A DNA stretch of 20,477 nucleotides. Source: a virus (lineage: Duplodnaviria > Heunggongvirae > Uroviricota > Caudoviricetes). The notes below the pieces were generated by a model. That model was not told the origin of the DNA. It was given only the letters and a program-made list of their open reading frames with translations, and searched no databases. Position numbers and translations under genes: made by a program. How positions within the stretch are numbered: the stretch's first letter is position 1; each line of letters opens with the position of its first letter. Where the stretch lies: positions 1-20,477 of IMG/VR virus record IMGVR_UViG_2703718852_000002, one strand, 5' to 3'. This document shows, piece by piece, positions 1,054 to 17,622 of the stretch.

Positions 1054-1241
1054 AAAAAATGCCCTCCAATAGAGAGCATTTTTACTGTATGTATAACCAG
1101 TGTCAATGTATGAAATCCTGCGACCATACATCTCACTGAAGCCATAATGAAGTAGGCTATTCTTTTTGCTATGTGATCATGTAACTTTTGCGGTTAACCT
1201 GTGGCTCATTTTTATTTTAGGCGCAGATATAAAAGCAAAAG

Positions 1242-3721: not shown

Positions 3722-3948
3722 TGGCTGATGCAATGGATCTCGTACAGCAGCGCGTTGAAGAAGAACGCCAACGCCATATCCGTGCTGCCCGTGCCAAAAC
3801 GCCGGGCGTGTCCCGCGTGCTTTGCATTGAGTGTGAAGCGCCAATTCCGCCAGCACGCCGCCGTGCCATTCCGGGTGTGCAGCTTTGCATTACCTGTCAG
3901 GAAATCGCAGAGCTGAAAGGCAAACATTACAACGGAGGTGCTGTATGA
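3721..3948 (+). CDS. TraR/DksA-family C4 zinc-finger protein (75 aa)
   Basis: CIECEAPIPPARRRAIPGVQLCITCQ gives CxxC...CxxC. Typical P2-like early gene. Translationally coupled on both sides. Confidence 0.8.
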   Translation: MADAMDLVQQRVEEERQRHIRAARAKTPGVSRVLCIECEAPIPPARRRAIPGVQLCITCQEIAELKGKHYNGGAV

Positions 3949-4802
3949 GCACCATCCTGAAATGGGCGGGAAATAAAACTGCCATAATGTCCGAACTGAA
4001 AAAACATCTTCCTGCTGGCCCGCGACTGGTTGAACCTTTCGCGGGTTCCTGTGCTGTGATGATGGAGACGGATTATCCCAGCTATCTGGTTGCGGATATT
4101 AATCCTGATTTAATCAACCTCTATAAAAAGGTTGCCGCTGATTGTGAATCGTTTATATCTCGCGCCAGAGTTTTATTTGAGATCGCAAACAGGGAAGTGG
4201 CTTATTACAACATAAGGCAGGAGTTTAATTACTCAACTGAAATTACTGATTTCATGAAAGCGGTATATTTCCTGTATCTCAATCGTCACGGTTACCGTGG
4301 TTTATGTCGCTATAACAAGAGCGGGCATTTCAACATTCCCTACGGTAATTATAAAAATCCGTATTTCCCTGAAAAAGAAATTCGCGCATTTGCAGAAAAG
4401 GCCCAGCGAGCAACGTTTATCTGCGCCAGCTTTGATGAAACGCTGGCGATGTTGAAGGCGGGGGATGTGGTGTATTGCGATCCGCCGTATGACGGTACGT
4501 TTTCCGGCTATCACACTGACGGCTTCACTGAAGATGACCAGTATCACCTGGCATCTGTTCTTGAACATCGGTCATCAGAAGGACATCCGGTCATTGTTTC
4601 TAACAGTGACACATCCCTGATCCGTTCGCTGTATCGCAATTTTACTCACCACTACATCAAGGCAAAACGCAGCATCGGTGTGGCAGCTGGCGAGGGTAAA
4701 TCAGCAACAGAAATCATTGCTGTTTCCGGGCCGCGCTGCTGGGTGGGATTTGATTATTCGCGTGGCGTGGATAGTTCTGCCGTGTACGGAGTACGTGCAT
4801 GA
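3945..4802 (+). CDS. dam: DNA adenine methyltransferase, Dam/D12 class (285 aa)
   Basis: [20 protein letters not shown] (SAM-binding FxGxG) and YCDPPY catalytic motif. GGAGG before ATG 3945; ATGA overlaps with both neighbours. The track start at 3885 is an upstream extension. Confidence 0.9.
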
Positions 4803-7213
4803 GTCATGCCGATATGAACAACTGCTGCGGCTTTAACGAAGCTGCCGCATCGTTCTCATGGAACAGCTCGAAAAAGGCCATTAACCCTTATCTGGACCCG
4901 GTGGAAGTTGCGCCGGTTTCTACGCTTTCAAACCTGATCACTCTGTACGCTGCCGATAACGAGCAGGAACAGCTGCGCCGTGAGGCGCTGAGTGATCAGG
5001 TCTGGGAGCGTTATTTCTTTAATGAATCCCGTGATCCTGTCCAGCGCGAAATGGAACAGGATAAGCTCATTAGTCGGGCAAAGCTGGCGCATGAGCAGCA
5101 GCGTTTTAATCCGGATATGGTCATTCTGGCGGACGTCAACGCCCAGCCTTCCCATATCAGCAAGCCGCTGATGCAACGTATTGAATACTTCAGCAGCCTG
5201 GGCAGGCCAAAGGCTTATTCCCGCTATTTACGTGAGACGATTAAGCCATGTCTGGAACGACTGGAGCATGTACGCGACAGTCAGCTATCTGCATCTTTTC
5301 GCTTTATGGCAAGCCATGAAGGGCTGGACGGCCTGCTGATCCTGCCTGAAATGAGTCAGTTTCAGGTGAAACGCCTGTCCACCCTGGTAGCTGCGCATAT
5401 GAGTATGTGCCTTGATGCCGCTTGTGGCGATTTGTATGCCACCGATGACGTTAAGCCAGAAGAAATCCGCAATACATGGGAAAGGGTGGCAGCGGAAACC
5501 CTGCGTCTGGATGTCATCCCGCCTGCGTTTGAGCAACTCCGTCGGAAAAGAAACCGCCGTAAACCCGTGCCCTATGAACTCATTCCGGGTTCGCTGGCGC
5601 GTATGTTGTGCGCCGACTGGTGGTATCGGAAATTATGGAAGATGCGTTGCGAATGGCGGGAAGAGCAGTTGCGTGCTGTCTGCCTTGTCAGCAAAAAAGC
5701 ATCTCCCTATGTCAGCTATGAAGCCGTGTTGCATAAACGTGAGCAGCGCCGTAAGTCGCTGGAGTTTTTCCGTTCTCATGAACTGGTGAACGAAGACGGC
5801 GACACGCTGGACATGGAGGATGTGGTAAACGCCAGCAGCAGCAACCCTGCGCATCGCCGCAATGAGATGATGGCCTGTGTTAAAGGTCTGGAGCTTATCG
5901 CGGAAATGCGCGGTGACTGCGCCGTTTTCTACACCATCACCTGTCCGTCACGTTTCCATTCCACGCTAAATAACGGCAGGCCCAACCCGACCTGGACAAA
6001 TGCGACGGTAAGACAAAGCAGCGATTATCTGGTCGGTATGTTTGCTGCATTTCGTAAGGCGATGCACAAAGCCGGGTTGCGCTGGTATGGCGTGCGGGTG
6101 GCTGAGCCGCATCACGACGGCACAGTTCACTGGCACCTGTTGTGTTTCATGCGCAAAAAAGACCGCCGCGCCATTACAGCATTGTTGCGTAAGTTTGCTA
6201 TCCGTGAAGACCGCGAGGAGCTGGGCAATAACACGGGGCCGCGCTTTAAGTCTGAGCTGATTAACCCGCGCAAAGGAACGCCGACAAGCTACATAGCGAA
6301 ATACATCAGTAAGAACATTGACGGGCGTGGTCTGGCTGGCGAGATCAGCAAGGAAACGGGTAAATCTCTGCGTGATAACGCTGAATACGTGAATGCCTGG
6401 GCGTCTTTGCATCGTGTTCAGCAATTCCGCTTCTTTGGCATTCCGGGGCGTCAGGCTTACCGTGAACTGCGATTGCTGGCTGGTCAGGCGGCAAGGCAAA
6501 AGGGGGACAAAAAAGCAGGTGCGCCGGTACTGGATAACCCGCGCCTTGATGCCATCCTGGCTGCTGCTGATGCTGGTTGTTTTGCCACCTACATCATGAA
6601 GCAGGGCGGCGTACTGGTTCCCCGTAAATATCACCTCATCAGAACCGCTTATGAAATCAACGAAGAGCCGACCGCCTATGGCGATCACGGCATTCGTATT
6701 TATGGCATCTGGTCACCCATTGCAGAGGGCAAGATCTGCACTCATGCAGTGAAGTGGAAAATGGTTCGTAAAGCCGTTGACGTTCAGGAGGCGGCAGCCG
6801 ACCAGGGCGCTTGCGCCCCTTGGACTCGTGGCAATAACTGTCCCCTTGCTGAAAATTTGAACCAACAGGAGAAAGATAAATCAGCTGATGGGGACCCCAG
6901 AACGGACATTACCAGCATGGATGACAAGGAGTTGCACGATTACCTGCACAGTATGAGCAAAAAAGAGCGCCGGGAACTGGCAGCAAGGTTACGCCTGGTG
7001 AAACCGAAACGGCGTAAAGACTACAAACAGCGAATTACAGACCATCAGCGACTGCAGCTCGTGTATGAGCTGAAGTCCAGAGGATTTGATGGCAGCGAGA
7101 AAGAGGTCGATTTACTCCTTCGCGGAGGCAGTATTCCGTCAGGAGCAGGCCTGCGTATCTTCTATCGGAACCAGCGTTTGCAGGAAGATGATCAGTGGCG
7201 GAACCTGTATTAA
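4799..7213 (+). CDS. A: Replication initiation endonuclease gpA (rolling-circle Rep, 804 aa)
   Basis: HUH-type motif [10 protein letters not shown] and the two-tyrosine motif [10 protein letters not shown] typical of P2/186 A and phiX174-type initiators. Size and position match P2-family gene A. Confidence 0.9.
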
Positions 7214-7366: not shown

Positions 7367-7555
7367 ATGCAGGACTATTTTTTGGAGTCTTTGAAGCTCC
7401 AGCGCATTGATTTTTTTCTTAAGCTTGTAGCGGCTAGTGAGTGTAGTGATGAAGAGAAGGGGCTGGCTCTGCAGTGGGTTTCTGAATTGACTGATGAACT
7501 CATGGCAAAAATCAGAACCCACGAATACAACCGCTCAATGGATGTCATCAGCTGA
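7367..7555 (+). CDS. Small SOS-controlled protein, candidate Tum-like antirepressor (62 aa)
   Basis: AGGAGGAAAG-ATG at 7367, directly downstream of the LexA boxes. Same map position as the LexA-controlled tum of 186. Function is inferred from context only. Confidence 0.45.
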   Translation: MQDYFLESLKLQRIDFFLKLVAASECSDEEKGLALQWVSELTDELMAKIRTHEYNRSMDVIS

Positions 7556-7565
7556 GGTGACTTTT

Positions 7566-7799
7566 ATGCGCATTGAAATAATGATCGATAAAGAGCAGAA
7601 GATTAGCCAGTCTACCCTGGACGCCCTTGAATCCGAGCTTTACCGCAATCTGCGCCCCCTGTATCCCAAAACGGTAATTCGCATTCGCAAAGGTAGCTCT
7701 AACGGTGTGGAACTAACCGGACTGCAACTGGACGAAGAAAGAAAACAAGTGATGAAAATTATGCAGAAGGTGTGGGAAGACGACAGCTGGCTGCATTAA
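7566..7799 (+). CDS. DinI-like protein (77 aa)
   Basis: MRIEIMIDKEQ...LDALESELYRNL...QKVWEDDSWLH parallels E. coli DinI (MRIEVTI...IDALAGELSRR...QETWESADDW). GAGGTG RBS. Confidence 0.8.
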   Translation: MRIEIMIDKEQKISQSTLDALESELYRNLRPLYPKTVIRIRKGSSNGVELTGLQLDEERKQVMKIMQKVWEDDSWLH

Positions 7800-7958: not shown

Positions 7959-8003
7959 GCGTAGATCATGCAGGTGCATGAAAACCACTACATAAAGCGG
8001 GCA

Positions 8004-8022
8004 GGCGTGGCGGGGATACGAG
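8004..8022. other. cos: cos-like cohesive-end sequence GGCGTGGCGGGGATACGAG
   Basis: The first 13 nt are identical to the 186 cohesive end as I recall it (GGCGTGGCGGGGAAAGCAT; P2 is GGCGAGGCGGGGAAAGCAC). It lies between the replication module and the portal gene, as in P2/186. Confidence 0.5.
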
Positions 8023-8196
8023 CGCGCGCTGATAGGGTAATCGTCAAAACAGGCATCAGCTAGGTTGAGTTGTAGCGGTGCTTAAGTTTGCTCGTTGTTT
8101 GATAGAGCTTAATGTATGTAATTGCCTACAGCTGTGGTTATCTATTAACATGTAAGGATAAGGTCACTTGCTCGCTGCCATTAGAAGAGGAACTGG

Positions 8197-8667
8197 ATGT
8201 CTATCGAGGAAAAATTTTTTAGTGATATCGATTTAAAAGATCCGTTTTTTAACAGCCTAAGAGCTGATTATGAAGGATTTGATGTTTGGTTTCTCTCAAA
8301 AGGTAAAAATAAGGCGTTTGTATCACGTAATGAATTAGGTGAAATCGATGGTTTTCTCTATTTGAAAATAGAAGATGAAGAGTTGAGTGATATGACTCCA
8401 ACGTTTCCAAAGATGAAGCGAGTAAAGCTTGGCACATTTAAAATCGATGCTCATGGAACCAAACTTGGAGAGCGTTTTATTAGAATTATGTTTCAATTTG
8501 CTATGAGAAACAAACTAAAAGAAGTATATGTTACTATATTTGATAAGCATTCAGGATTAATTCGCTTATTAACTAAATATGGTTTTGTTTTAAAGGCGAG
8601 GAAAAATCTTTCTACGATTAATGGGCAAGAAGGTGTATACTTTAAAAACTTGGTATGGAAGGAGTAA
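8197..8667 (+). CDS. Cargo gene 1: GNAT-fold acetyltransferase-like protein (156 aa)
   Basis: AGAGGA RBS. The C-terminal half, FKIDAHGTKLGERFIRIMFQFAMRNKLKEVYVTIFDKHSGLIRLLTKYGFVLKA, fits the GNAT beta4-alpha3 / ...YxKxGF pattern. The existence of the ORF is more certain than its function. AT-rich. Confidence 0.6.
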   Translation: MSIEEKFFSDIDLKDPFFNSLRADYEGFDVWFLSKGKNKAFVSRNELGEIDGFLYLKIEDEELSDMTPTFPKMKRVKLGTFKIDAHGTKLGERFIRIMFQFAMRNKLKEVYVTIFDKHSGLIRLLTKYGFVLKARKNLSTINGQEGVYFKNLVWKE

Positions 8668-8670
8668 AAA

Positions 8671-9252
8671 ATGAGCTATGCTAATTATCCCTTAGTCAAA
8701 TTGCAGGGGAGAAATTATTTATTAAGTATTTATCCTGCATGGCATACACGTCTTTTCCCTGAGTCAAAACTCCACAATGAGAGTGCTGGTATCATCGCTG
8801 ATATATCACATACCAACAGTATTGAAAAAGTATACTTAACAAAAATGCATGGGGTAGCCAGCCTAAAGCCTGGAGATAATTTGCTTATTTATCGTACTTC
8901 AGATGGACAAGGTCCAGCTCGGTTTAGATCTGTTGCAACTTCAGTGTGTGTGGTTCAGGAAATTAAAGATATTCACGATTTCTTAACTTATGAGGAATTT
9001 AAGAATTACTGTGAACCTTATAGCGTTTTTGATGAAGATGAGTTACAGCTTCTATATATGAAAAAAAATTATCCGATAATTATACGGTTTACTTATAATT
9101 TCCCTTTGGAAAAAAGAGTTATTCGTGATGAAATCATGAATATTACAGGTTATACCAATAGTGATTATTGGGGTTTTTTACCACTAACTGATTCAGCATT
9201 TAAGCAGATTGTCTTACAGGGAGGTGTTGATGAAAGTTTTATTATCGATTAA
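8671..9252 (+). CDS. Cargo gene 2: unknown 193-aa protein, possibly a divergent PUA-like/ASCH-type beta-barrel
   Basis: AAGGAG RBS, start 4 nt after the gene 1 stop. The core LKPGDNLLIYRTSDGQGPARFRSVATSVCVVQEIKD resembles the strand-turn-strand core of ASCH/EVE-type folds. No catalytic motif was recognised with confidence. Confidence 0.45.
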   Translation: MSYANYPLVKLQGRNYLLSIYPAWHTRLFPESKLHNESAGIIADISHTNSIEKVYLTKMHGVASLKPGDNLLIYRTSDGQGPARFRSVATSVCVVQEIKDIHDFLTYEEFKNYCEPYSVFDEDELQLLYMKKNYPIIIRFTYNFPLEKRVIRDEIMNITGYTNSDYWGFLPLTDSAFKQIVLQGGVDESFIID

Positions 9253-9601
9253 GCCAGAGTATGCAGAGAGTATACTTTCTGGTAAAAAAAAATATGAGTT
9301 TCGGAAAAATATTTTTAGAAATAAAAATGTTGATACGATAGTTATTTACGCAACGATGCCGGTTGGCAAAGTAATAGGTGAATTTAAAGTAGGAGATATT
9401 CTTGCTCTATCCCCTTCAGAATTGTGGGATAAAACGAAAGCTCATGCAGGAATTACACATTCTTTTTTTAAAGATTATTTCCACCAAAGAGAAAAGGCTT
9501 TTGCTATTTCCATCAAAAGCCCTAAAAGATATAAATTCCCTGTCGACTTAAATGAGTTGATTCCCGGCGGCGTCGCCCCACAGTCTTATCGTTATTTATA
9601 A
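9230..9601 (+). CDS. Cargo gene 3: ASCH-domain protein (123 aa)
   Basis: GGAGGTG RBS; ATG 9230 overlaps the end of gene 2 by 23 nt. MKVLLSIKPEYAESILSGKKKYEFRKNIFRNKNVDTIVIYATMPVGKVIGEFKVGDIL...AFAISIKSPKRYKFPVDL is the classic stand-alone ASCH (COG4933-type) pattern. Confidence 0.75.
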   Translation: MKVLLSIKPEYAESILSGKKKYEFRKNIFRNKNVDTIVIYATMPVGKVIGEFKVGDILALSPSELWDKTKAHAGITHSFFKDYFHQREKAFAISIKSPKRYKFPVDLNELIPGGVAPQSYRYL

Positions 9602-10141
9602 TGTTGTCTGGGCATGTTTCTTAACCATGCCCAGTTTTTCTAGGGCAATAGATAAATCGTTTGTTGTTGGGGATTCTAAGATAATTAATGGTACATTGAT
9701 TTTATTTGTAACATATTTTGCGTTTTCTCTTTCAGCTTCCATCAGCTTATTTAAATCATAAGTAATATCACTCCCATCTCGTTTCATTATTCGTTCTCTA
9801 ATTGTATCGGGAGACTCCTCAACTAAAATTACTCCATCTAGCCCCATTTCCTCAAATACTTCTTGCTTGAGAACTTCAATATCTCCATTTTTATTTATTA
9901 AGGTAAAATGACCATCCAATAAAATATTGGATACCTTTAACTTTAATGCATTAAGTGCCGTAAGTAATATTGATTGGTTTTTATCAGGTGTGGCCGTTAA
10001 CTTACTGTTATCAAATTTAATATTAGAATTATTTTTTATAAGTTCGCTTGCGCTTACATGAGTTACCCCGAAATCATCTTTTGCAAATGAACACAAGTAA
10101 CCTTTGCCTACACCATGAACACCTGCTATGAAAATTAACAT
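9596..10141 (-). CDS. Cargo gene 4: P-loop NMP/adenylate-kinase-like protein (181 aa)
   Basis: GGAGGT RBS. Walker A IAGVHGVGKGY (a GKG-type loop as in adenylate kinases) and LLDGHF (compare ILDGFP of Adk). Convergent with gene 3; the 3' ends overlap by 6 nt. Confidence 0.65.
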   Translation of the reverse strand: MLIFIAGVHGVGKGYLCSFAKDDFGVTHVSASELIKNNSNIKFDNSKLTATPDKNQSILLTALNALKLKVSNILLDGHFTLINKNGDIEVLKQEVFEEMGLDGVILVEESPDTIRERIMKRDGSDITYDLNKLMEAERENAKYVTNKINVPLIILESPTTNDLSIALEKLGMVKKHAQTTL

Positions 10142-10166
10142 AGTATTACCTCCGTTTATTTATTTA

Positions 10167-10175
10167 TGTTAGAAT
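10167..10175 (+). promoter_or_regulatory. Extended -10 promoter candidate (TGTTAGAAT) for the ASCH-2/AbiC-like operon
   Basis: TGn-TAGAAT at 10167-10175, with a weak -35 (TTACCT, 18-nt spacer). Predicted TSS ~10182, 25 nt before ATG 10207. Confidence 0.4.
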
Positions 10176-10189
10176 GTTATAGCCTTAGC

Positions 10190-10218
10190 ATAGTAGAGGA
10201 TAGAGCATGAAGTTTCAA
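10190..10218 (-). promoter_or_regulatory. Promoter candidate for the kinase-like gene: TTGAAA-17 nt-TACTAT (minus strand)
   Basis: -35 at 10218-10213 and -10 at 10195-10190 on the minus strand, exact 17-nt spacer. Predicted TSS ~10183, about 42 nt before ATG 10141. Confidence 0.45.
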
Positions 10219-10584
10219 GCTATATCGATTTTGACTCCAGCGGTAGAAAATATTATAAATGGTTCTAAATCTATCGAAATACGGTCGTGGTATCCTGAAA
10301 CGATACCATTAAAAAACGTCATTCTTGTTCAGAATGATAAATATCTTAAAAATCAAAGCGATATAGATCATGGGGTGGCTATGGCTATTGTCGATTTTGT
10401 TTCAGTTAGAAATTGGTCATATGAGGATTACTTAAAACAAAACCAAGAAACAACTCTTAATAAGCCTTGGTCTCCAGGTTATTATGTGTGGGAAATTAAA
10501 AATGTTAGAATTTTAAAAAAATCTATTCCTTGTGTGGCGAGGAAAGGTATTTATACAATAGATTTAAATATGGATTATATATAA
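10207..10584 (+). CDS. Cargo gene 5: ASCH-domain protein (125 aa)
   Basis: GAGGA RBS. MKFQAISILTPAVENIINGSKSIEIRSWYPETIPLKNVILVQ fits the common ASCH opening (AxSIxQPWAxxIxxGxKxIEIRSW...). Confidence 0.7.
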   Translation: MKFQAISILTPAVENIINGSKSIEIRSWYPETIPLKNVILVQNDKYLKNQSDIDHGVAMAIVDFVSVRNWSYEDYLKQNQETTLNKPWSPGYYVWEIKNVRILKKSIPCVARKGIYTIDLNMDYI

Positions 10585-10595
10585 GGTATTGTGAG

Positions 10596-11387
10596 ATGTG
10601 TGGTGCCATTCTTCGAAATATTAAGCGTTATGCCATTATTTATTCACTGTTGTTTTTGGCTTTTATTTTAATGCTGATAGTGTTTGTTAGCTATGTTTGT
10701 AAATTTGGAGTGTATTCATGGAGTGATTCCGTAGAGAAATGGGGACAGTTTGGCGATTATATTGGTGGTGTACTGAATCCTGCTCTGGCCTTTATCTCTA
10801 TCATGCTTGTTTGTTTCACACTATATTCTACATCTAGGCAGTCATCTATTCAGTCATTCGAGTCTGTGTTATTTGAGTTACTAAGATTTCATAAAGATAA
10901 CTTATCAGAAATTAAAACAACGTATTCAGATGGAAAAGTGTATGTAGGACGGGAGGCTCTTTCATTATACATTACCGAAGTGAAGTTTAACCTACTTAAT
11001 ATTGTGGATGATTCACTTCCTTTGGATGAAAGGTTAGAGCTTTCAGTTAATATGGTTTATCTGGAAGGTGACAATTTTGCGAATGTGGGACATTATTTCA
11101 GGAATATTTACCATATTTTTAAACATATCAATGACTCTAACTATTTGACTGAGAAAGAAAAAACCAAGTATGCGAAATTAGTTAGAGCACAAATATCTTC
11201 TATAGAATCTGGCGCGATGCTATTAAATGGTTTTTCATCGGTAGGAAAGCCTGCCAAGAAATTTATTGAAAAATATTCTCTCCTTCAGGGGTTTAGTTTA
11301 AGTAAGGAATTCAAGCAGCAATTACATGATTTAGGTGCCTTAAAATTATACGATGACGTTGCTTATGAGGATAAAAAAGGGCATTAA
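10596..11387 (+). CDS. Cargo gene 6: two-TM membrane protein, AbiC-like putative abortive-infection effector (263 aa)
   Basis: Starts 11 nt after gene 5. Two N-terminal hydrophobic helices (AIIYSLLFLAFILMLIVFVSYV and VLNPALAFISIMLVCFTLY) flank WGQFGDYIGGVLNP, the signature I associate with the Pfam 'putative phage abortive infection protein' (putAbiC) family. The C-terminal region is soluble and helical. Confidence 0.6.
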   Translation: MCGAILRNIKRYAIIYSLLFLAFILMLIVFVSYVCKFGVYSWSDSVEKWGQFGDYIGGVLNPALAFISIMLVCFTLYSTSRQSSIQSFESVLFELLRFHKDNLSEIKTTYSDGKVYVGREALSLYITEVKFNLLNIVDDSLPLDERLELSVNMVYLEGDNFANVGHYFRNIYHIFKHINDSNYLTEKEKTKYAKLVRAQISSIESGAMLLNGFSSVGKPAKKFIEKYSLLQGFSLSKEFKQQLHDLGALKLYDDVAYEDKKGH

Positions 11388-11394
11388 ATGCCCT
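11378..11394. terminator. Bidirectional hairpin AGGGCAT-TAA-ATGCCCT at the cargo/portal boundary
   Basis: Perfect 7-bp stem. On the minus strand it is followed by TTTTTTA, so it serves as a Q terminator. The stop codons of gene 6 (11385-11387) and Q (11384-11386, minus strand) both sit in or beside the loop. Confidence 0.55.
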
Positions 11395-12220
11395 TATCTT
11401 GGTCAAGGATGTAGTCATTAAATGACACAATATTTTGATTTATCCAGGTGTTTAGCTCAACTAGTCTTTTCTGCAAAGGAACCAACTCATTTCTGACAAA
11501 AACCTTCGCGGCTTTTTCCACATCCCCAAACCCTCCAACATTATTAGGCATAATCCCCATCATTTGCGGCGGCACGCGGTGCGCAGCCATCATGTCATCA
11601 CGGCTCACGTTCTTGATATTCAGAAACTCATCCTTCGCCGCAACTTCTGACAATGGGATAATCTGAAGCCCGTCCTTTTTGCCGTTAGGCGAGTACATAA
11701 ACAGGTTGCGGAAGTTGCCCGGACCTTTGGCGCTTTTCATCGCATTGCGGAGGTTGTTCACATCTTCCTGGTTCTGCGCGGCATCGGTCATGTACATGAT
11801 GAAGCCTGCATGACTGCCGTTAATGTAATACTTCCGGCGGAACAGCGTGGCGGACTCGTTGAGCAGGGCTGACGGAATGGCAGAAAGATAACCTGGCAGG
11901 CCGTAGATCTCCTGGTTGATGTCCGGTTCCATCAGATGAAAAATGCTGCCTTTCGTGAACTGATACGGCTGGGTTGTCATACCGTATTGCACAAACCAGT
12001 AGGTATCCAGGTCTAACCCGCGTCGGGTATATTTTGCCAGAGCAGGCTCAAGGGCGATAACTTCACCGAAGCGGTTCGTGCGTTTCTCCAGGTAGGCGTT
12101 ACCAAATACCAGATAGTCCTGCACAAAACGTGAAAAAGCCTGCTGGCTGAGCAGCGGGTGAGGGATGTAGGTACTGGTCAGAATGTTGCATTTTACTGCA
12201 ATCGGTGACCGGAAGCAGAG
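11384..12220 (-). pseudogene. Q: Portal protein gpQ, 5'-truncated (C-terminal ~275 codons retained)
   Basis: SPIAVKCNILTSTYIPHPLLSQQAFSRF...LNESATLFRRKYYINGSHAGFIMY...VFVRNELVPLQ matches P2 gpQ from about residue 70 onward. Upstream of ~12210 the minus-strand frame reads antisense to the J remnant (track ORF to 12337). Confidence 0.85.
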
Positions 12221-12439
12221 CCGGTAATGGCAGCGGCAAAAGCCAGTCTGCAGAAGTACATTGCCAGCCAGACGAGGCTTGGTCGGGATATTCGCCGTAG
12301 CGCCATCTTTGCTGCTCTGCATGTTGAGGGTGTTCAACGTGTGGAACTGGCTTCTCCGCTGGCGGATGTGGTCCTGAACAAAACACAGGCGGCATCATGT
12401 ACGCAGTGGAGCGTAACCAACGGAGGAACGGATGAATAG
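12209..12439 (+). pseudogene. J: Baseplate protein gpJ, 3' remnant (~75 codons)
   Basis: ...RLGRDIRRSAIFAALHVEGVQRVELASPLADVVL...GGTDE is a P2 gpJ C-terminus. An in-frame stop at 12206-12208 lies just upstream. The remnant is immediately followed by, and overlaps, gene I as in P2. Confidence 0.75.
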
Positions 12440-13037
12440 TCTGCTGCCACCGGGTTCAACTTCACTGGAGCGCCGACTGGCGCAAACCTGTAGCGGGATT
12501 TCTGATTTGCAGGTGCCGCTGCGTGACTTGTGGAATCCGGCTACCTGTCCGGTCAGCTTCCTGCCTTATCTCGCCTGGGCGTTCTCTGTGGATCGCTGGG
12601 ACGAGGGCTGGACAGAAAGCGTCAAACGCCAGGTAGTGAAGGATGCTTTTTATATTCATCAGCATAAAGGAACCACCAGTGCCGTGCGGCGGGTGGTGGA
12701 ACCGTTCGGATTCCTGATCCGCATTATTGAGTGGTGGCAGACCGGAGAAACACCGGGCACGTTTCGCCTGGATATCGGCGTGCAGGACCAGGGCATCACT
12801 GAAGATACCTATCTGGAACTTGAGCGACTGATAAGCGATGCCAAACCATGTAGCCGCCACATGATCGGCATGTCCATCAATCTGCAGACCAGCGGCCCGC
12901 ATTGGGTGGGAGCCGCCAGCTATCTTGGCGAAGAAATCACGATCTATCCGTATATCAACGAAACGATTATTTCCGGTGGCACCGCGCATGAAGGCGGGGC
13001 GGTCCATGTTATTGACACAATGAGAGTGAATCCATGA
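12432..13037 (+). CDS. I: Baseplate/tail protein gpI (201 aa)
   Basis: GGAGGA RBS. MNSLLPPGSTSLERRLAQ...FLPYLAWAFSVDRWDEGW is typical of P2 gpI. Coupled to H (ATGA). Confidence 0.85.
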   Translation: MNSLLPPGSTSLERRLAQTCSGISDLQVPLRDLWNPATCPVSFLPYLAWAFSVDRWDEGWTESVKRQVVKDAFYIHQHKGTTSAVRRVVEPFGFLIRIIEWWQTGETPGTFRLDIGVQDQGITEDTYLELERLISDAKPCSRHMIGMSINLQTSGPHWVGAASYLGEEITIYPYINETIISGGTAHEGGAVHVIDTMRVNP

Positions 13038-14977
13038 GCACAAAATTTTATACCCTGCTGACGGATATTGGCGCGGCGAAACTTGCCAGCGCCGCCGCGC
13101 TCGGTGTGCCGCTAAAAATTACCCATATGGCGGTGGGCGATGGCGGTGGAGTATTGCCAACGCCGGACGCAAAGCAGACGGCACTGGTAAATGAGAAACG
13201 CCGGGCTGCGCTGAATATGCTTTATATCGACCCGCAGAACAGCAGCCAGATTATTGCCGAACAGGTGATCCCTGAAAACGAGGGCGGTTGGTGGATACGT
13301 GAAGTGGGCTTGTTTGATGAGTCCGGGGCATTGATTGCCGTGGGCAACTGCCCGGAAAGCTATAAGCCGCAACTGGCTGAAGGTAGCGGGCGCACTCAGA
13401 CCGTGCGCATGGTGCTGATTACCAGCAGCACGGACAATATCACCCTGAAAATCGACCCTGCTGTAGTGCTGGCAACCCGCAAGTATGTGGATGACAAGGC
13501 ACTGGAGCTGAAGGTGTACGCGGATGATCAGATGGCAAAACATCTTGCCGCACCGGACCCGCATTCACAGTACGCGCCAAAAGCCAGCCCGACATTTACC
13601 GGAACCCCCAAAGCGCCAACGCCAGCGGCGGGGAATAATACCACGCAGGTTGCGACCACTGCGTTTGTACAGGCGGCACTGACGGCCCTTATTAATGGTG
13701 CGCCAGCCACGCTGGACACGCTGAAAGAAATAGCCGCAGCCATTAACAATGATCCGAATTTCAGTACCACCATTAACAATGCGCTGGCACTAAAAGCACC
13801 GTTGTCGAGTCCGGCACTCACCGGAACGCCAACAGCCCCCACGGCGGCGCAGTCGGTCAACAATACACAGATTGCCACTACGGCTTTTGTGAAATCGGCG
13901 ATTGCAGGAATGGTGGGTTCTGCACCTGCTGCACTGGATACACTGAACGAACTGGCGGCGGCACTGGGGAATGATCCGAACTTTGCCACGACAATGCTTA
14001 ATGCGCTGGCAGGTAAACAACCGCTGGACAATACGCTTACCAATTTGAGTGGAAAGGATGTGGCTGGTCTTCTCGCATACCTTCAATTGGGAGAAGCGGC
14101 AAAACGGGATGTCGGAACCGGTAATAATCAACTCCCGGACATGTCCGCATTTGGTATGTCGCGAAACGGACAAACTGCCTGGGATATTCTCCCAAATGGT
14201 ATGATTCGACAGGCTGGCACTGTGACACTGACACCAGTTGGTAACTTCAACGAAATTGTTCTTGGTGGAGTGACGTACTACACCCATTACTACAGGGTTA
14301 ATTTCCCCAGACAATTCCCAAATGCACAAATAGCAACGCTGGCAACACTAGCGAGCTCAGAGTTTTCGAAACAGACAACAATGGCCGGAAAATCACTGGC
14401 AACGCATCGCGATACTGATTCTGGCACTGACGTATCAAGAACGCGATTCACTGTGGCGTACGGCAGCAGTAACTCGAACCAGCAGCGCGTTGTCCTGGCT
14501 GGCTGGCGCACCACTGGCACTGCTGCGACGCGGGCTTGCTTCATCGGGCAACGCCGCAGGTTTACTTACTGCGCCGTTGTCGTCTTTGCGCCGCACGGCA
14601 TCACTGACGGGAAATGTCCTGAAAACTGTAGCAGGTGCGCCGGTTGCACTTTTGCGGTCTGGATTATCCGGTTTACGTGCTGTTGCTGTGATGTTTATGA
14701 ATCCTCTGGCGGTACTGCGCGGTGGACTGGCCGCCGCAGGCACGGTGCTGCGAGTACTGGCATCTGGTCCACTGGCGATGCTGCGCGTTGCCCTGTATGC
14801 CATATCTGGTCTGTTAGGTGCTCTGCTCAGTCCGATAGGTCTTGTGGTTACTGCACTGGCGGGCGTGGCGCTGGTTGTCTGGAAATACTGGCAACCCATC
14901 ACCGCATTTCTCGGTGGCGTGGTGGAAGGATTCAAAGCGGCGGCAGGTCCCATCAGTGCAGCGTTCGAACCGCTTAA
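13034..14977 (+). pseudogene. H: Tail fibre gpH, 3'-truncated and fused out of frame into the tape-measure gene
   Basis: P2 H-like N-terminus MSTKFYTLLTDIGAAKLASAAALGVPLKITHMAVGDGGG. Fibre-like sequence runs to ~14488 (...TVAYGSSNSNQQ). After that the frame gives a Cys/Arg/Gly-rich nonsense tail across T DNA until the stop at 14977. Confidence 0.8.
13631..14025 (+). repeat. Tandem ~75-aa repeat inside the tail fibre
   Basis: NNTTQVATTAFVQAALTALINGAPATLDTLKEIAAAINNDPNFSTTINNALALKAP is repeated as VNNTQIATTAFVKSAIAGMVGSAPAALDTLNELAAALGNDPNFATTMLNALAGKQP. This is a common phage fibre repeat. Confidence 0.8.
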
Positions 14978-15734
14978 GCCCGTGTTCCAGTGGATTGGCG
15001 ACAAAGTGCAGGCGCTGTGGGGCTGGTTTACTGATCTGCTGACGCCCGTTAAGTCGACCTCTGCCGAACTGCAGAGCGCAGCGGCAATGGGGCGGCGATT
15101 CGGGGAGGCACTGGCGGAAGGGCTGAATATGGTCATGCATCCGCTGGACTCCCTGAAATCCGGCGTTTCCTGGTTGCTGGAGAAGCTCGGCATTGTCAGT
15201 AAAGAGGCCGCAAAGGCAAAACTGCCGGAAAGCGTGACGCGTCAGCAACCTGCGACGGTGAATGCAGACGGTAAAGTGATGATGCCATCGGGTGGTTTTC
15301 CATCATGGGGATATGGCTTTGCGGGGATGTATGACAGCGGCGGGTATATCCCGCGCGGGCAGTTTGGCATCGTCGGTGAAAACGGGCCGGAAATTGTTAA
15401 CGGCCCGGCAAATGTGACCAGCCGGAGAAATACAGCTGCACTGGCTGCCGTTGTTGCCGGAATGATGGGCGTTGCTGCCGCGCCAGCAGAGCTTCCACCG
15501 TTGCACCCTTTGGCACTTCCCGCGAAAGGTGGAGAAGCAATTGTGAGTCGCGCAGCCACTGTGCCGCTCGTTCAACGGATTGAGGCACCGACGCAGATCA
15601 TCATTCAGACGCAGCCAGGACAAAGTGCGCAGGATATTGCGCGGGAGGTGGCACGCCAGCTTGATGAACGTGAACGCAGGCTGAAGGCAAAAGCCAGGAG
15701 TAACTACAGCGATCAGGGGGGATACGACGCATGA
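14490..15734 (+). pseudogene. T: Tape-measure protein gpT, 5'-truncated (C-terminal ~414 codons)
   Basis: Ala/Gly/Leu-rich periodic PLALLRRGL / PVALLRSGL / PLAVLRGGL units, then ...GGYIPRGQFGIVGENGPEIV..., typical of P2 gpT. There is no credible start (TTG only). Followed by U with an ATGA overlap. Confidence 0.8.
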
Positions 15735-16216
15735 TGATGGTGCTGGGATTGTACGTGTTTATGCTGCGCACCGTTCCGTATCAGGAACTGCAGTATCAAC
15801 GCAGCTGGCGACATGCGGCAAACAGTCGGGTAAACCGACGTCCGTCCACGCAGTTTCTGGGACCGGAAAACGACATGCTGACGCTTTCCGGTGTTCTTAT
15901 GCCGGAAATAACAGGCGGCAGGCTGTCGTTGCTGGCACTGGAGCAGATGGCAGAACAGGGGAAAGCATGGCCCCTGATTGAAGGCAGCGGCACGATTTAC
16001 GGCATGTATGTGATTGAGGGACTGAATCAGACTAAAACGGAGTTTTTCCGCGACGGTATGCCGCGCCGGATTGAGTTCACCCTGTCGCTCAAACGAGTGG
16101 ATGAATCCCTGTCCGATATGTTCGGTGATCTCAGTGCGCAACTGAATAATCTGCAGGACACGGCAACGTCTGCCTTAAGCGATATCAGTAAAACGGTGGG
16201 AGGGCTGCTGTCGTGA
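15731..16216 (+). CDS. U: Tail protein gpU (161 aa)
   Basis: MMMVLGLYVFMLRTVPYQELQYQRSWRHAANSRV...GKAWPLIEGSGTIYGMYVIE closely parallels P2 gpU. Confidence 0.9.
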   Translation: MMMVLGLYVFMLRTVPYQELQYQRSWRHAANSRVNRRPSTQFLGPENDMLTLSGVLMPEITGGRLSLLALEQMAEQGKAWPLIEGSGTIYGMYVIEGLNQTKTEFFRDGMPRRIEFTLSLKRVDESLSDMFGDLSAQLNNLQDTATSALSDISKTVGGLLS

Positions 16217-17313
16217 ATTTCAGCTCTGAACTGCTTAACAAAGGCAACAAAACTCCCGCATTCAGCATCAGTATTGAGGGCAGGGATATCACCACTGTGC
16301 TGGATAACCGCCTGATGAGTTTGACGCTGACGGATAACCGGGGCTTTGAAGCGGACCAGCTTGATCTGGAGCTGGATGACGCTGACGGAAAAATCGTGCT
16401 GCCGCGCCGTGGTGCGGTTATTACGCTGGCGCTGGGCTGGAAGGGGCAGCCGCTTTTCCCGAAAGGGGCATTCACAGTGGACGAGATTGAACACACTGGC
16501 GCACCGGACCGCCTGACTATCCGGGCGCGAAGTGCTGATTTTCGGGAAACGCTGAATACCCGCCGTGAAAAATCGTGGCATAAGACCACCGTCGGGGAAG
16601 TGGTGAAGGAAATAGCCGCGCGGCACAAGCTGAAGATGGCACTGGGTAAAGACCTGTCGGATAAGCCCGTGGAGCATATAGACCAGACTAATGAGAGTGA
16701 CGGCAGTTTTCTGATGCGGCTGGCGCGACAGTACGGTGCCATCGCGTCGGTGAAAAATGGCAATCTGTTATTCATCCGGCAGGGGCAGGGCAAAAGCGCC
16801 ACTGGTAAACCTCTGCCAGTGATCACTATCACACGCAAGGACGGCGACAGTCACCGATTTACCCTGGCAGATCGCGGAGCCTACACGGGCGTAATTGCCA
16901 GCTGGTTGCATACCCGCGAACCTGCGAAGAAAGAAAGCACCACGGTGAAGCGTAAGCGCAGAACTAAGAAGCAGAAGAAAGAGCCAGAAGCGAAGCAGGG
17001 CGATTACCTGGTGGGTACGGATGAAAACGTGCTGGTACTTAATCGCACTTATGCCAACCGGAGCAACGCCGAACGAGCGGCGAAAATGCAGTGGGAACGC
17101 CTGCAACGCGGCGTTGCGTCATTTTCGCTACAACTGGCAGAAGGGCGGGCAGATCTCTACACGGAAATGCCTGTGAAGGTCAGTGGTTTTAAACAGCCGA
17201 TAGATGATGCGGAATGGACCATTACGACTCTGACACATACTGTCAGCCCGGATAATGGTTTTACGACCAGTCTGGAGCTTGAAGTGAGGATTGATGATTT
17301 CGAAATGGAATGA
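16213..17313 (+). CDS. D: Tail/late-control protein gpD (366 aa)
   Basis: ...LTLTDNRGFEADQLDLELDDADG...RARSADFRETLNTRREKSWH...VKVSGFKQPIDDAEWTITTLTH parallels P2 gpD. GTG start overlaps the U stop. Confidence 0.9.
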   Translation: MNFSSELLNKGNKTPAFSISIEGRDITTVLDNRLMSLTLTDNRGFEADQLDLELDDADGKIVLPRRGAVITLALGWKGQPLFPKGAFTVDEIEHTGAPDRLTIRARSADFRETLNTRREKSWHKTTVGEVVKEIAARHKLKMALGKDLSDKPVEHIDQTNESDGSFLMRLARQYGAIASVKNGNLLFIRQGQGKSATGKPLPVITITRKDGDSHRFTLADRGAYTGVIASWLHTREPAKKESTTVKRKRRTKKQKKEPEAKQGDYLVGTDENVLVLNRTYANRSNAERAAKMQWERLQRGVASFSLQLAEGRADLYTEMPVKVSGFKQPIDDAEWTITTLTHTVSPDNGFTTSLELEVRIDDFEME

Positions 17314-17338
17314 TTCTTCGCAATGGAGAACTTTTAAG

Positions 17339-17366
17339 TTTGCAAAATGGAATAATGCGGTATCAT
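17339..17366 (+). promoter_or_regulatory. ogr promoter candidate TTTGCA-16 nt-TATCAT
   Basis: Hexamers at 17339-17344 and 17361-17366, about 40 nt upstream of the ogr ATG. Confidence 0.4.
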
Positions 17367-17403
17367 TATTGTGAATTTAGCAAAAATGGGGAGAGCTCGA
17401 AAA

Positions 17404-17622
17404 ATGATGATTTGCCCACTGTGTGGAAGTGCCGCCCATACTCGCAGCAGTTTTCAGGTATCTTCATTGACCAAAGAGCGTTACAACCAGTGCCAGAACA
17501 TTAACTGCAGCCATACTTTTGTTACCCATGAAACTTTTGTTCGTTCGATTGCAACGCCAAAAGAGTCAAATCCGGTTCAGCCGCATCCAATGAAATCAGG
17601 ACAGGTGGCGCTCTCTCTTTGA
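17404..17622 (+). CDS. ogr: Ogr/B-type zinc-finger late-gene activator (72 aa)
   Basis: MMICPLCGSAAHTRSS...KERYNQCQNINCSHTF matches the Ogr/Delta/186-B CxxC...CxxxxC pattern and the 72-aa length. The track ORF start at 17371 is an extension. Confidence 0.9.
   Translation: MMICPLCGSAAHTRSSFQVSSLTKERYNQCQNINCSHTFVTHETFVRSIATPKESNPVQPHPMKSGQVALSL

Follow-up and report, generated by a model that had tools for sequence, protein, structure and literature searches.

Results

Gene content of the locus

The window analysed in this work is a stretch of 20,477 nucleotides representing a virus record (IMGVR_UViG_2703718852_000002). Five proteins (g1-g5) are encoded at positions 8197-10584, within a span of 2.4 kb, and they are followed by a sixth gene, g6 (Table 1). 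An earlier note on this DNA had drawn attention to the interval 8671-10584, in which it saw two ASCH proteins and a possible third PUA-like core, together with a GNAT acetyltransferase and a kinase-like P-loop protein. This gene set is indeed present and the interval is right for g2-g5, but the acetyltransferase gene g1 lies just outside it.

Table 1. Features of the locus and their positions in the window
Feature	Position	Strand	Remarks
Low-GC variable cargo of the P2-like gpA-gpQ hotspot	8038..11387	.	five-gene cassette and putAbiC gene
g1, GNAT acetyltransferase, 156 aa	8197..8667	+	PADLOC PDC-M11A, N-terminal half
g2, EVE/ASCH-like PUA-fold protein, 193 aa	8671..9252	+	C-terminal half of PDC-M11A
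Overlap of g2 end and g3 start, 23 nt	9230..9252	+	indicates translational coupling
g3, ASCH protein of ZmASCH type, 123 aa	9230..9601	+	PDC-M11B
g4, AAA_17 P-loop protein, adenylate/UMP-CMP-kinase-like, 181 aa	9596..10141	-	accessory component
g4/g5 divergent intergenic region	10142..10206	.	from gene layout; promoter function presumed
g5, second ASCH protein, EOLA1/TRIP4-like, 125 aa	10207..10584	+	ASCH by motif and predicted fold
g6, membrane protein with putAbiC domain, 263 aa	10596..11387	+	neighbouring, separable, outside the core

One consensus-like minus-strand promoter match (10218-10190) lies near the region between g4 and g5. Overall, the promoter/terminator scan yielded 7 promoter-like sites, compared to 15.5 expected by chance, i.e. 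there was no enrichment over shuffled sequence. Comparison of g1-g3 between the window and the Salmonella copy revealed 23 synonymous and 5 non-synonymous codon changes, a ratio which indicates that purifying selection acts on these genes.

Location in the P2 gpA-gpQ hotspot

The GC content falls from about 0.46-0.55 to 0.33 across the variable region. On the left, the flank shared with other prophages and phages of E. coli reaches only to about 8030-8037, and on the right the region directly adjoins the portal gene at its 3' end. The surrounding genes have a P2-like layout, with gpA at 4799-7213, DinI at 7494-7799 and the portal gene (gpQ) at 11384-12337, and the same gpA-portal layout was found in an intact prophage (L001). 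The cassette is cargo of the known P2 gpA-gpQ defence hotspot, a site of variable genes between gpA and gpQ in P2-like prophages (Rousset et al. 2022, PMC9122126). A P2 cos sequence had no match in the window within 3 mismatches.

The g6 product matched putAbiC in Pfam (9.9e-19) and AbiC in PADLOC (9.4e-6). In one related locus (L003) g6 is present without g4 and g5, and it is absent from two others (L004 and L097). Judged by these sequence comparisons, g6 is a separate, putative abortive-infection gene. The position in the hotspot (PMC9122126) and the adjacent putAbiC gene bear out the defence-locus setting that had been assumed for the cassette.

A rather different possibility, which we consider quite improbable, is that the cassette serves the phage itself, for instance as a countermeasure to host restriction or to defences aimed at tRNA, or through stabilisation of the prophage as an addiction module. 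It has been proposed that prophage GNAT-EVE proteins may shield phages from host restriction-modification through toxicity (Bell et al., PMC7641849), and about a quarter of the cargoes in the P2 hotspot are not defence genes (PMC9122126). Moreover, the cassette is intact although its host prophage is heavily deleted and defective, as would be expected of an addiction module. However, retention in a defective prophage is equally consistent with a defence that benefits the host, systems excluding other phages are strongly overrepresented in the hotspot (PMC9122126), and a putAbiC gene adjoins the cassette.

Conservation of the cassette

The order g1-g2-g3-g4-g5, with g4 on the minus strand, recurs in 12 viral contigs and at 3 genome loci, with amino acid identities down to 55-60%. 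Because the same order is retained in 15 loci at this level of divergence, the grouping of g1-g5 is beyond chance: GNAT, kinase and three PUA-like proteins are inherited as one cassette in the P2-like prophage. In a set of 80 related loci GNAT, EVE and ASCH were all present in 79, the single exception ending at a contig edge. GNAT and EVE were fused in 72 of the 80, and are two coupled genes in this and other enterobacterial copies. The EVE and ASCH genes overlapped by exactly 23 nt in 71 loci, coming from many phyla. A g4 homologue adjoined the core in 16 loci, in five different positions or orientations, and was absent from the remaining 64. The core presence, the fusion, the exact overlap and the linkage of the kinase despite five gene orders all speak for a functional linkage.

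The view that the five genes are unrelated cargo assembled in a recombination hotspot could be based on the observations that P2 hotspots often carry more than one system (PMC9122126) and that g6 assorts independently of the remaining genes. This view is hardly credible for the cassette as a whole and is effectively refuted for g1-g4, taking into account the order conserved over 15 loci, the conservation of the core across phyla with the exact 23-nt overlap, and the linkage of the kinase in five different arrangements.

Correspondence with the candidate system PDC-M11

In the PADLOC search g1 matched PDC-M11A (PDLC04419) with E 1.1e-58 over profile positions 11-160 of 357, and g2 matched the same profile with E 6e-69 over positions 166-357. 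The adjacent ASCH protein g3 matched PDC-M11B (PDLC04425; E 1.7e-49), and the accessory AAA_17 gene is represented by g4. The region is very probably a prophage copy of the GNAT-EVE + ASCH + AAA_17 cassette, PADLOC candidate PDC-M11, in a P2-like hotspot. The association of these genes is thus not new but had already been catalogued. None of g1-g5 matched a named, validated defence system in PADLOC v2, and no experimental study of the GNAT-EVE/ASCH/AAA_17 system was found in the literature searched.

According to Bell, Wolf & Koonin 2020 (PMC7641849), ASCH is almost always encoded in (PIN)-GNAT-EVE operons, and AAA_17 is a frequent further member. In that survey GNAT-EVE forms were located in beta- and gamma-proteobacterial prophages, and PIN RNase domains were often fused to GNAT-EVE in relatives (PMC7641849). 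GNAT-EVE/ASCH operons had been predicted computationally already by Iyer et al. 2013, as cited in PMC7641849. Our search identified 220 GNAT-EVE/ASCH genome loci, distributed over Proteobacteria, Bacteroidota, Firmicutes, Acidobacteriota, Verrucomicrobiota, Myxococcota and Cyanobacteria. For the exact cassette the assembly collection has over 1,500 indexed blocks, and the copies examined were from Salmonella. In the enterobacterial variant GNAT-EVE is split into the translationally coupled g1 and g2, and an EOLA1-type g5 is added beside g4. The g5 gene is confined to the enterobacterial P2-like clade, where it always occurs together with the other four cassette genes.

The acetyltransferase and its PUA-like half

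On its own g1 had no Pfam match; in PHROGs it matched phrog_13728, annotated 'acetyltransferase'. PF00583 was matched by 12 of 17 members of the g1 family, in which the motifs HGTxxGxRF and YGF are invariant. The family profile matched PaiA-like and Naa50-like GNATs, among them PaiA (1TIQ) with E 8.6e-5. When compared with the PDB at E<=1, it detected no TmcA chain, and the aminoacyl-tRNA-acetylating GNAT toxins of the TacT, AtaT and ItaT type in the PDB were not matched either.

No Pfam family was matched by g2. Its AlphaFold model (pLDDT 82.2, pTM 0.80) supports the reality of the PUA-like module that had been listed as a possible third one, and in this model g2 has a predicted nucleic-acid or modified-base-binding fold. 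The best structural matches of g2, as well as those of g5, are RNA-associated ASCH proteins.

The g1 and g2 genes share a reading frame with a single TAA between them, and g2 has its own GGAG ribosome-binding site. The split state is conserved in Enterobacterales and Aeromonas. Since GNAT-EVE is a single protein in most relatives (see above), g2 can be regarded as the targeting domain of the acetyltransferase and not as an independent reader, the role it had been given before. We also considered that g1 and g2 are a pseudogene split by a recent nonsense mutation. This was rejected: a separate protein of 193 aa occurs in many genera with 60-84% identity, the two genes are in different frames in two related loci (L004 and L005), and g2 has the ribosome-binding site mentioned above.

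Two divergent ASCH proteins with intact octapeptides

The Pfam ASCH model (PF04266; gathering threshold 21.2 bits) was matched by g3 with 37.1 bits (E 5.3e-9) and by g5 with 19.5 bits, just under the cut-off. The octapeptide GxKxxExR is intact in both: in g3 it comprises G18, K20, E23 and R25 (local sequence SGKKKYEFR), and in g5 the invariant octapeptide is G19-S-K21-S-I-E24-I-R26. BLASTP found no similarity between g3 and g5, and the hhalign alignment was confined to the region of the octapeptide (E 3.7e-4, probability 36%), in agreement with the earlier description of the two as mutually divergent ASCH proteins. The hhalign comparison of g3 with g2 was not significant. Homology of g2, g3 and g5 at the sequence level was dismissed on the basis of these BLASTP and hhalign comparisons, and the three are linked by their predicted folds only.

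The Lys and Glu of the ASCH octapeptide are essential for the deacetylation of tRNA ac4C by TthASCH, EOLA1 and TRIP4, and all of the 19 ASCH proteins tested, including ZmASCH, removed tRNA ac4C in vitro (bioRxiv 10.64898/2026.02.27.708502). Because the catalytic Lys/Glu octapeptide is retained, g3 and g5 are more likely to be enzymes than readers: as far as the motif can tell, they are probably deacylases, or erasers, rather than passive readers. Thus, of the initial view of these genes as readers the ASCH identity stands, and the reading role is the less likely one.

Among 10 longer or fusion proteins scanned in the distant relatives of g5, the partner was a GNAT in five cases, a cytidine/dCMP deaminase in one and NTP_transf_6 in one. 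ASCH-GNAT coupling is therefore recurrent. A "Rosetta stone" fusion of kinase and ASCH, which would have tied g4 to g5, did not occur among the 10 longer proteins obtained from 210 g5-family representatives.

Relationship of g3 to ZmASCH

The closest solved relative of g3 is ZmASCH (ZMO0922; PDB 5GUQ). In the phmmer search g3 matched this structure with E 6e-12, and ZmASCH matched the g3 family HMM at 3e-29. ZmASCH was first described as a Mg-dependent single-stranded-RNA ribonuclease, with Tyr47 and Ser128 needed for binding and cleavage. More recently it was found to deacetylate tRNA ac4C in vitro, whereas it had no activity towards free ac4C and no lowering effect on ac4C in vivo (bioRxiv 10.64898/2026.02.27.708502). 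We asked if ZmASCH could itself belong to a system of the present kind, and discarded the idea: its upstream neighbour encodes an unrelated 375-aa protein and not GNAT-EVE. Its biochemistry may therefore not transfer to the role of g3 within the system.

These properties bear on the alternative that the ASCH proteins are ssRNA ribonucleases acting as effectors, with GNAT-EVE as a sensor or regulator which, for example, acetylates a protein or the ASCH protein after binding phage nucleic acid. Defence would then be achieved by RNA degradation instead of an acetyl mark on nucleic acid. In favour of this scheme, the HMM places ZmASCH, which cleaves single-stranded RNA with Mg2+, in the g3 family, the equivalents of its Tyr47 and Ser128 (Y40 and S119) show little or no variation within that family, and the PIN fusions to GNAT-EVE in relatives suggest an RNA target (PMC7641849). 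Nevertheless, the authors of the ZmASCH study saw no acidic site for metal binding, the invariant octapeptide with its Lys and Glu is in keeping with the chemistry of an amidohydrolase, and ZmASCH stands outside any GNAT-EVE operon. We regard the ribonuclease scheme as improbable.

In one viral contig (L090) g3 is frameshifted and g1 and g2 are intact. The frameshift could be a homopolymer sequencing error; if real, it argues against g3 being an essential antitoxin.

The kinase-like protein

Pfam matches of g4 were AAA_17 (E 3.1e-18) and ADK (4.4e-5), and in the PDB it matched adenylate kinase 1 (4e-6) and UMP/CMP kinase (7e-5). The motifs GxHGxGK and LLDGHF are conserved. In the common Salmonella copy g4 is a pseudogene. 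The protein has no role in the writer/eraser model described below.

Discussion

Proposed mechanism

In our estimate the explanation that best accounts for the locus as a whole, with a probability of about 0.42, is that the cassette is PDC-M11 and that it works as a writer/eraser pair. The mechanism, taken by itself, is plausible, and it is put forward with considerable reserve. The g1 and g2 products would form an acetyl-CoA-dependent acetyltransferase, which the PUA-like subunit g2 would direct to nucleic acid, most likely tRNA or other RNA, possibly a DNA base. The co-translated g3, which retains the Lys/Glu dyad on which the amidohydrolase activity of ASCH proteins depends, would remove or counteract the acetyl mark. 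In the lysogen writer and eraser might be balanced like toxin and antitoxin, comparable to DarT and DarG. Infection by a second phage would upset this balance or bring a new substrate, translation or replication would then be blocked, and the competing phage would be excluded. The g4 and g5 products may be accessory components for tuning or salvage, with g6 a separate abortive-infection-like gene.

The GNAT motifs in g1, the fold of g2, the octapeptide Lys/Glu in g3 and g5, the action of ZmASCH on tRNA ac4C in vitro and the recurrent ASCH-GNAT coupling argue for this mechanism. The lack of a TmcA or aminoacyl-tRNA-acetylating toxin match with the g1 profile, the inactivity of ZmASCH on free ac4C and on ac4C in vivo, its first description as a ribonuclease, and the kinase being left without a role argue against it. 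The earlier idea of a joint action of these genes on nucleic acid that is modified or acylated is in line with computational predictions in the literature (PMC7641849) and with the 2026 preprint.

A more specific version, which appears doubtful, is an acetyl writer/eraser immune module acting on nucleic acid as a counterpart of DarTG. According to this version the two-subunit GNAT/EVE enzyme would N-acetylate a base, either of tRNA or of nucleic acid from phage or host, and so leave a mark resembling ac4C. The two mechanistically distinct deacylases, one of ZmASCH type and one of EOLA1 type, would reverse the mark on different substrates, and the NMP-kinase-like g4 would tie the acetyl cycle to the nucleotide pool.

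The main idea of the earlier note was DNA modification: EVE and ASCH proteins would recognise hypermodified phage bases, and GNAT would acetylate these or a self base, so that phage replication is blocked or self and non-self are told apart. We assign only a small probability to this idea. The locus lacks an effector directed at DNA, such as a nuclease: a search of g1-g6 for nuclease families in Pfam, NCBIfam, PHROGs and PADLOC found none, hence nothing of the type IV restriction kind. The structural similarity of g2 and g5, which is greatest to RNA-associated ASCH proteins, also weighs against DNA, as does the fact that all demonstrated ASCH activities are on RNA or nucleosides. Cytosine or hmC is not singled out by any of the evidence, and a specificity for cytosine, hmC or T4 finds no support.

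Significance

GNAT-EVE/ASCH cassettes are widespread, occur in defence hotspots, and were predicted in 2020 and, as cited there, in 2013 (PMC7641849); their function is a prediction. ASCH proteins have lately been shown to erase tRNA ac4C (bioRxiv 10.64898/2026.02.27.708502). Where an acetyltransferase carries a nucleic-acid-targeting domain and is coupled in translation to an ASCH protein, the search for a natural writer/eraser pair has an obvious starting point. If the proposal is true, the cassette would be the first example in nature of ASCH "erasers" encoded together with a "writer" dedicated to them, and it would provide a physiological context for bacterial ASCH proteins and for the EOLA1 and TRIP4 homologues. 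The E. coli/Salmonella version is practical, being small, with its parts already on separate genes, in a genetically tractable host. If the cassette proves to be inactive, a long-standing candidate drops out of the defence catalogues, which would also be useful.

Comparison with known systems

Type IV restriction enzymes with EVE, SRA, YTH or PUA readers (VcaM4I, the N-terminal domains of McrB, PD-T4-3) have a nuclease or GTPase as partner, whereas the partner in the cassette is an acetyltransferase. The YqfB-type ac4C amidohydrolases and ASCH tRNA erasers (PMC6972931) share the octapeptide, its catalytic Lys and, as predicted for g3 and g5, the beta-barrel ASCH fold with the cassette proteins. 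YqfB itself, however, which had been offered as the parallel, is a protein of about 103 aa with the Thr-type octapeptide GxKxxTxR, and g3 and g5 are of the Glu type. They are in this respect like TthASCH, EOLA1 and TRIP4, which have GxKxxExR and all deacetylate tRNA.

With the ac4C writers TmcA and NAT10 the cassette has in common the combination of a GNAT domain, an RNA-binding module and a P-loop NTPase. The parallel with TmcA drawn in the earlier note is a loose one: the TmcA-type ATPase is of the helicase type, in contrast to g4, which is NMP-kinase-like and, being absent from most loci, dispensable. Similarity between TmcA and g1 was not detected with the g1 family profile (see above).

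DarTG is a toxin-antitoxin defence that writes and erases DNA ADP-ribosylation, and TacT, AtaT and ItaT are the toxins of GNAT toxin-antitoxin pairs. The cassette may resemble these, by analogy, in that a transferase marking nucleic acid or aminoacyl-tRNA is tightly co-expressed with a remover of the mark or a neutraliser. It differs from them in having no sequence relationship to either, and no RHH/HTH antitoxin.

The closest likeness is to PDC-M11 and the (PIN)-GNAT-EVE operons, with which the cassette shares the same proteins in the same order (GNAT, an EVE-like PUA domain, ASCH), the AAA_17 gene nearby and the niche in gamma-proteobacterial prophages. In contrast to those operons, where GNAT and EVE are usually encoded by one gene, they are two genes here, there is no PIN domain, and the second, EOLA1/TRIP4-type ASCH protein (g5) is a fixed extra member.

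Prophage setting

A P2-like prophage makes up the window. Its low-GC island, carrying the cassette genes g1 to g5 and their neighbour g6, lies between a DinI-like gene and the portal gene, as does the same island in L001, the intact prophage of E. coli MLI104K1 (99.4% identity). This position is the gpA-gpQ hotspot, a reservoir of anti-phage systems according to Rousset et al. and the location of P2 old and tin (PMC9122126). Few E. coli carry the island, 8 among 5,426 complete genomes. Outside this species the cassette is found very often, at 97.6% nucleotide identity, the copies examined being from Salmonella; the g5 protein cluster was found in 1,544 indexed blocks of the assembly collection. 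At the final conserved bases before the variable island lies the GC-rich GGCGTGGCGGGGATACGAG, a putative cos that may resemble the P2/186 cos ends; the P2 cos sequence used for comparison had no match in the window at up to 3 mismatches.

Features of the window
Feature	Position	Strand	Remarks
Integrase	1-1131	-	P2-like prophage gene
CI/CII early region			between integrase and Dam methylase
Dam methylase	3885-4802		
Replication protein gpA	4799-7213		
DinI-like gene	7494-7799		
Low-GC island			3.35 kb, between DinI-like and portal genes; GC ~0.33 vs 0.46-0.55 in both flanks
GC-rich sequence	8003-8030		putative cos
g1 (GNAT)	8197-8667	+	156 aa; PADLOC PDC-M11A positions 11-160 of 357, E 1e-58
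g2 (EVE-like)	8671-9252	+	193 aa; PDC-M11A positions 166-357, 6e-69
A8 run	9061-9068		in g2
g2/g3 overlap	9230-9252		
g3 (ASCH)	9230-9601	+	123 aa; Pfam ASCH 5e-9; PDC-M11B 2e-49
A9 run	9286-9294		in g3
g4 (kinase-like)	9596-10141	-	181 aa; Pfam AAA_17 3e-18
g5 (ASCH-type)	10207-10584	+	125 aa; Pfam ASCH 19.5 bits, just below the 21.2 threshold
g6	10596-11387	+	263-aa membrane protein; putAbiC domain 1e-18
Portal gene	11384-12337	-	3' end borders the island
Short ORF	12227-12439		
gpI	12432-13037		
Tail fibre gene H	13034-14977		
414-aa ORF	14490-15734		TTG start; no Pfam match
gpU	15731-16216		

The prophage is defective, as 11384-17504 shows. It is colinear with L001 only as far as 12208, where a truncated portal gene runs into a short ORF, judged by eye to be probably the gpJ C-terminus, which is followed by gpI. 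Terminase, capsid and lysis genes are absent, and the gap of only ~750 bp between H and gpU indicates that the sheath, tube and tape-measure genes have largely been lost too. In spite of this decay the hotspot cassette is wholly intact. A 414-aa ORF overlapping the 3' part of the tail fibre gene and reaching gpU may be a remnant from a second deletion.

The predicted acetyltransferase pair

In a survey with one genome per species, 220 loci encoding a g2 relative were found and the best 80 were examined. GNAT and EVE were present in all 80 of these, and an ASCH gene in 79, the sole exception stopping at a contig edge. Bell, Wolf and Koonin (2020, PMC7641849) described a large protein class in which EVE is fused C-terminal to GNAT, often with an N-terminal PIN; the GNAT-EVE operons encode an ASCH protein in almost all cases and often an AAA_17 ATPase, PIN-less forms are common in beta- and gamma-proteobacterial prophages, and none of the operon modules was characterised. 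PADLOC lists the GNAT-EVE and ASCH pair as candidate system PDC-M11; the cassette in the window belongs to this kind, which is known but only predicted.

GNAT and EVE form a single ORF in 72 of the best 80 of 220 loci, the split being mainly confined to Enterobacterales. A recent lesion as its origin was rejected: the two genes are there sometimes in different frames, and the stand-alone 193-aa g2-type protein is conserved to ~60% identity, from which it follows that the split is old and maintained by selection. By itself g1 had no Pfam match; it matched a PHROG annotated as acetyltransferase, and 12 of the 17 members of its family, which share the invariant motifs HGTxxGxRF and YGF, matched PF00583. 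The profile of these 17 recognised the GNAT protein PaiA (1TIQ, 8.6e-5) and had no special affinity for TmcA or GNAT toxins. The analogy to TmcA drawn in the earlier note gained no specific support, nor did the T4/hmC angle.

The g2 protein belongs to no Pfam family and lacks the ASCH octapeptide GxKxxExR. In the equivalent place (residues 44-55) it has a loop with the invariant motif D44-x-S-H-T-N-S-I-x-K53-x-Y55, modelled by AlphaFold at low confidence (pLDDT below 50), which could serve to bind a ligand in a pocket or act as an active site not recognised so far.

ASCH proteins

Two clear ASCH/PUA-like modules and a possible third had been noticed from the sequence and taken for readers of modified bases. 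The observation was correct, and firmer than could be known at the time: g2, g3 and g5, too divergent for sequence comparison to connect them, are all modelled as PUA-superfamily beta-barrels. As to the reader role, g2 would be the acetyltransferase's targeting half and not a reader in its own right, and g3 and g5 look, from their residues, more like enzymes than readers. Both contain the octapeptide with its catalytic-type residues, G, K, E and R being invariant within each family.

The EVE and ASCH genes are translationally coupled. In 71 of the best 80 of 220 loci, from many phyla, the overlap of EVE stop and ASCH start measures exactly 23 nt, the shared DNA coding for both a conserved C-terminus (GGVDESxIV and stop) and a conserved N-terminus (MKVLLSIK); this constancy speaks strikingly for co-translation being obligatory. 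Poly-A runs occur in both genes. One related locus (L084) has A7 in place of the g2 run and a shortened ORF of 135 aa; in another (L090), with g1 and g2 intact, g3 is frameshifted near the position of the A9 run. Because this run lies within the octapeptide codons (G-K-K-K), the g3 frameshift is perhaps a homopolymer sequencing error; more generally, the runs could be sites of sequencing errors or slippage-prone on/off sites.

The second ASCH-type gene is g5. Its occurrences, in 12 viral contigs and at 3 genome loci, were all in P2-like elements of enterobacteria, always in the order g1-g2-g3-g4(-)-g5 and to 55% identity, which makes it a fixed fifth member of the cassette in this clade. Only 210 relatives were found among 1.84 billion representative proteins, most of them stand-alone. 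Among ten longer relatives scanned, five were fused to GNAT, with the domains in both orders; a cytidine/dCMP deaminase was the partner in one case and an NTP_transf_6 nucleotidyltransferase in another (distant relatives P0159, P0162, P0164, P0170, P0186, P0195 and P0205). The GNAT fusions indicate that coupling between ASCH and acetyltransferase recurs independently.

The kinase-like gene and g6

In the PDB, adenylate kinase 1 and UMP/CMP kinase come nearest to g4 in sequence; its P-loop is of the AK type (GVHGVGKG), and its LLDGHF motif is conserved. A homologue adjoins the core in 16 of the best 80 of 220 loci. Five arrangements occur: the homologue precedes GNAT, stands between EVE and ASCH, lies downstream in the same orientation, lies downstream in the opposite one, or is paired with a relocated ASCH. 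Linkage outlasting changes of gene order argues for a functional tie, and absence from the other 64 argues that g4 is accessory. In the abundant Salmonella version g4 is a pseudogene (copies L082-L085, L089 and L090, from Salmonella and IMG/VR), with a 1-bp frameshift past the P-loop, LLGDHF in place of LLDGHF, and 24 mismatches in 546 nt, where the remaining genes have ~2%; its substitution density is about double that of the genes beside it. In g1-g3, 23 synonymous and 5 non-synonymous codon changes separate the window from the Salmonella copy. The likeness to UMP/CMP kinase, together with the single ASCH-deaminase fusion, weakly hints at cytidine nucleotides.

Directly after g5 lies g6; its 3' end and that of the portal gene share 4 nt. 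Though separable (L003, L004, L097), g6 is usually present, and it is a second candidate abortive-infection gene in the hotspot.

Proposed mechanism

In a 2026 preprint (bioRxiv 10.64898/2026.02.27.708502) ac4C was removed from tRNA in vitro by every one of the 19 ASCH proteins tested, and TthASCH, EOLA1 and TRIP4 needed their octapeptide Lys and Glu for this. One of the 19 was ZmASCH (ZMO0922, PDB 5GUQ), which showed no activity towards free ac4C and none in vivo (bioRxiv 10.64898/2026.02.27.708502). First described as a Mg-dependent single-stranded-RNA RNase, it is a sequence homologue of g3 (E 6e-12), matches the g3 family HMM (3e-29) and is the sole crystallised member of that family. At its Zymomonas mobilis locus (L098:3825-5447) ZmASCH lies 49 nt downstream of a gene for a 375-aa uncharacterised protein with no Pfam or PADLOC match and no similarity to GNAT-EVE, which may be a different partner for the g3-type ASCH subfamily.

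Domain identities, gene linkage, translational coupling, the conservation of catalytic-type residues and the place in the hotspot are established. The mechanism is an inference: g1 and g2 would jointly act as a nucleic-acid-directed acetyltransferase, which g3 would counteract. Points that weaken it are the inactivity of ZmASCH on free ac4C and in vivo, its description as an RNase and its unrelated neighbour, the lack of any special affinity of the g1 profile for TmcA or GNAT toxins, and the frameshifted g3 of L090. DarTG is a writer/eraser toxin-antitoxin defence system. The proposal draws on such writer/eraser logic, on the preprint's ASCH biochemistry, on the place of ZmASCH in the g3 family and on the toxin-antitoxin role predicted by Bell et al. 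(PMC7641849). The earlier idea of a toolkit for modified or acylated nucleic acid, possibly of ac4C type, was reasonable and parallels published predictions and ASCH biochemistry; the association itself is not new.

Comparison with known systems

No description of the five-gene form was found, though Iyer 2013 may mention it. The cassette offers a compact, tractable entry to a widespread predicted system and to what ASCH erasers act against. Its architecture will not surprise a specialist: the window form is a lineage-specific, five-gene PDC-M11, with GNAT and EVE split and an extra ASCH of the EOLA1 type.
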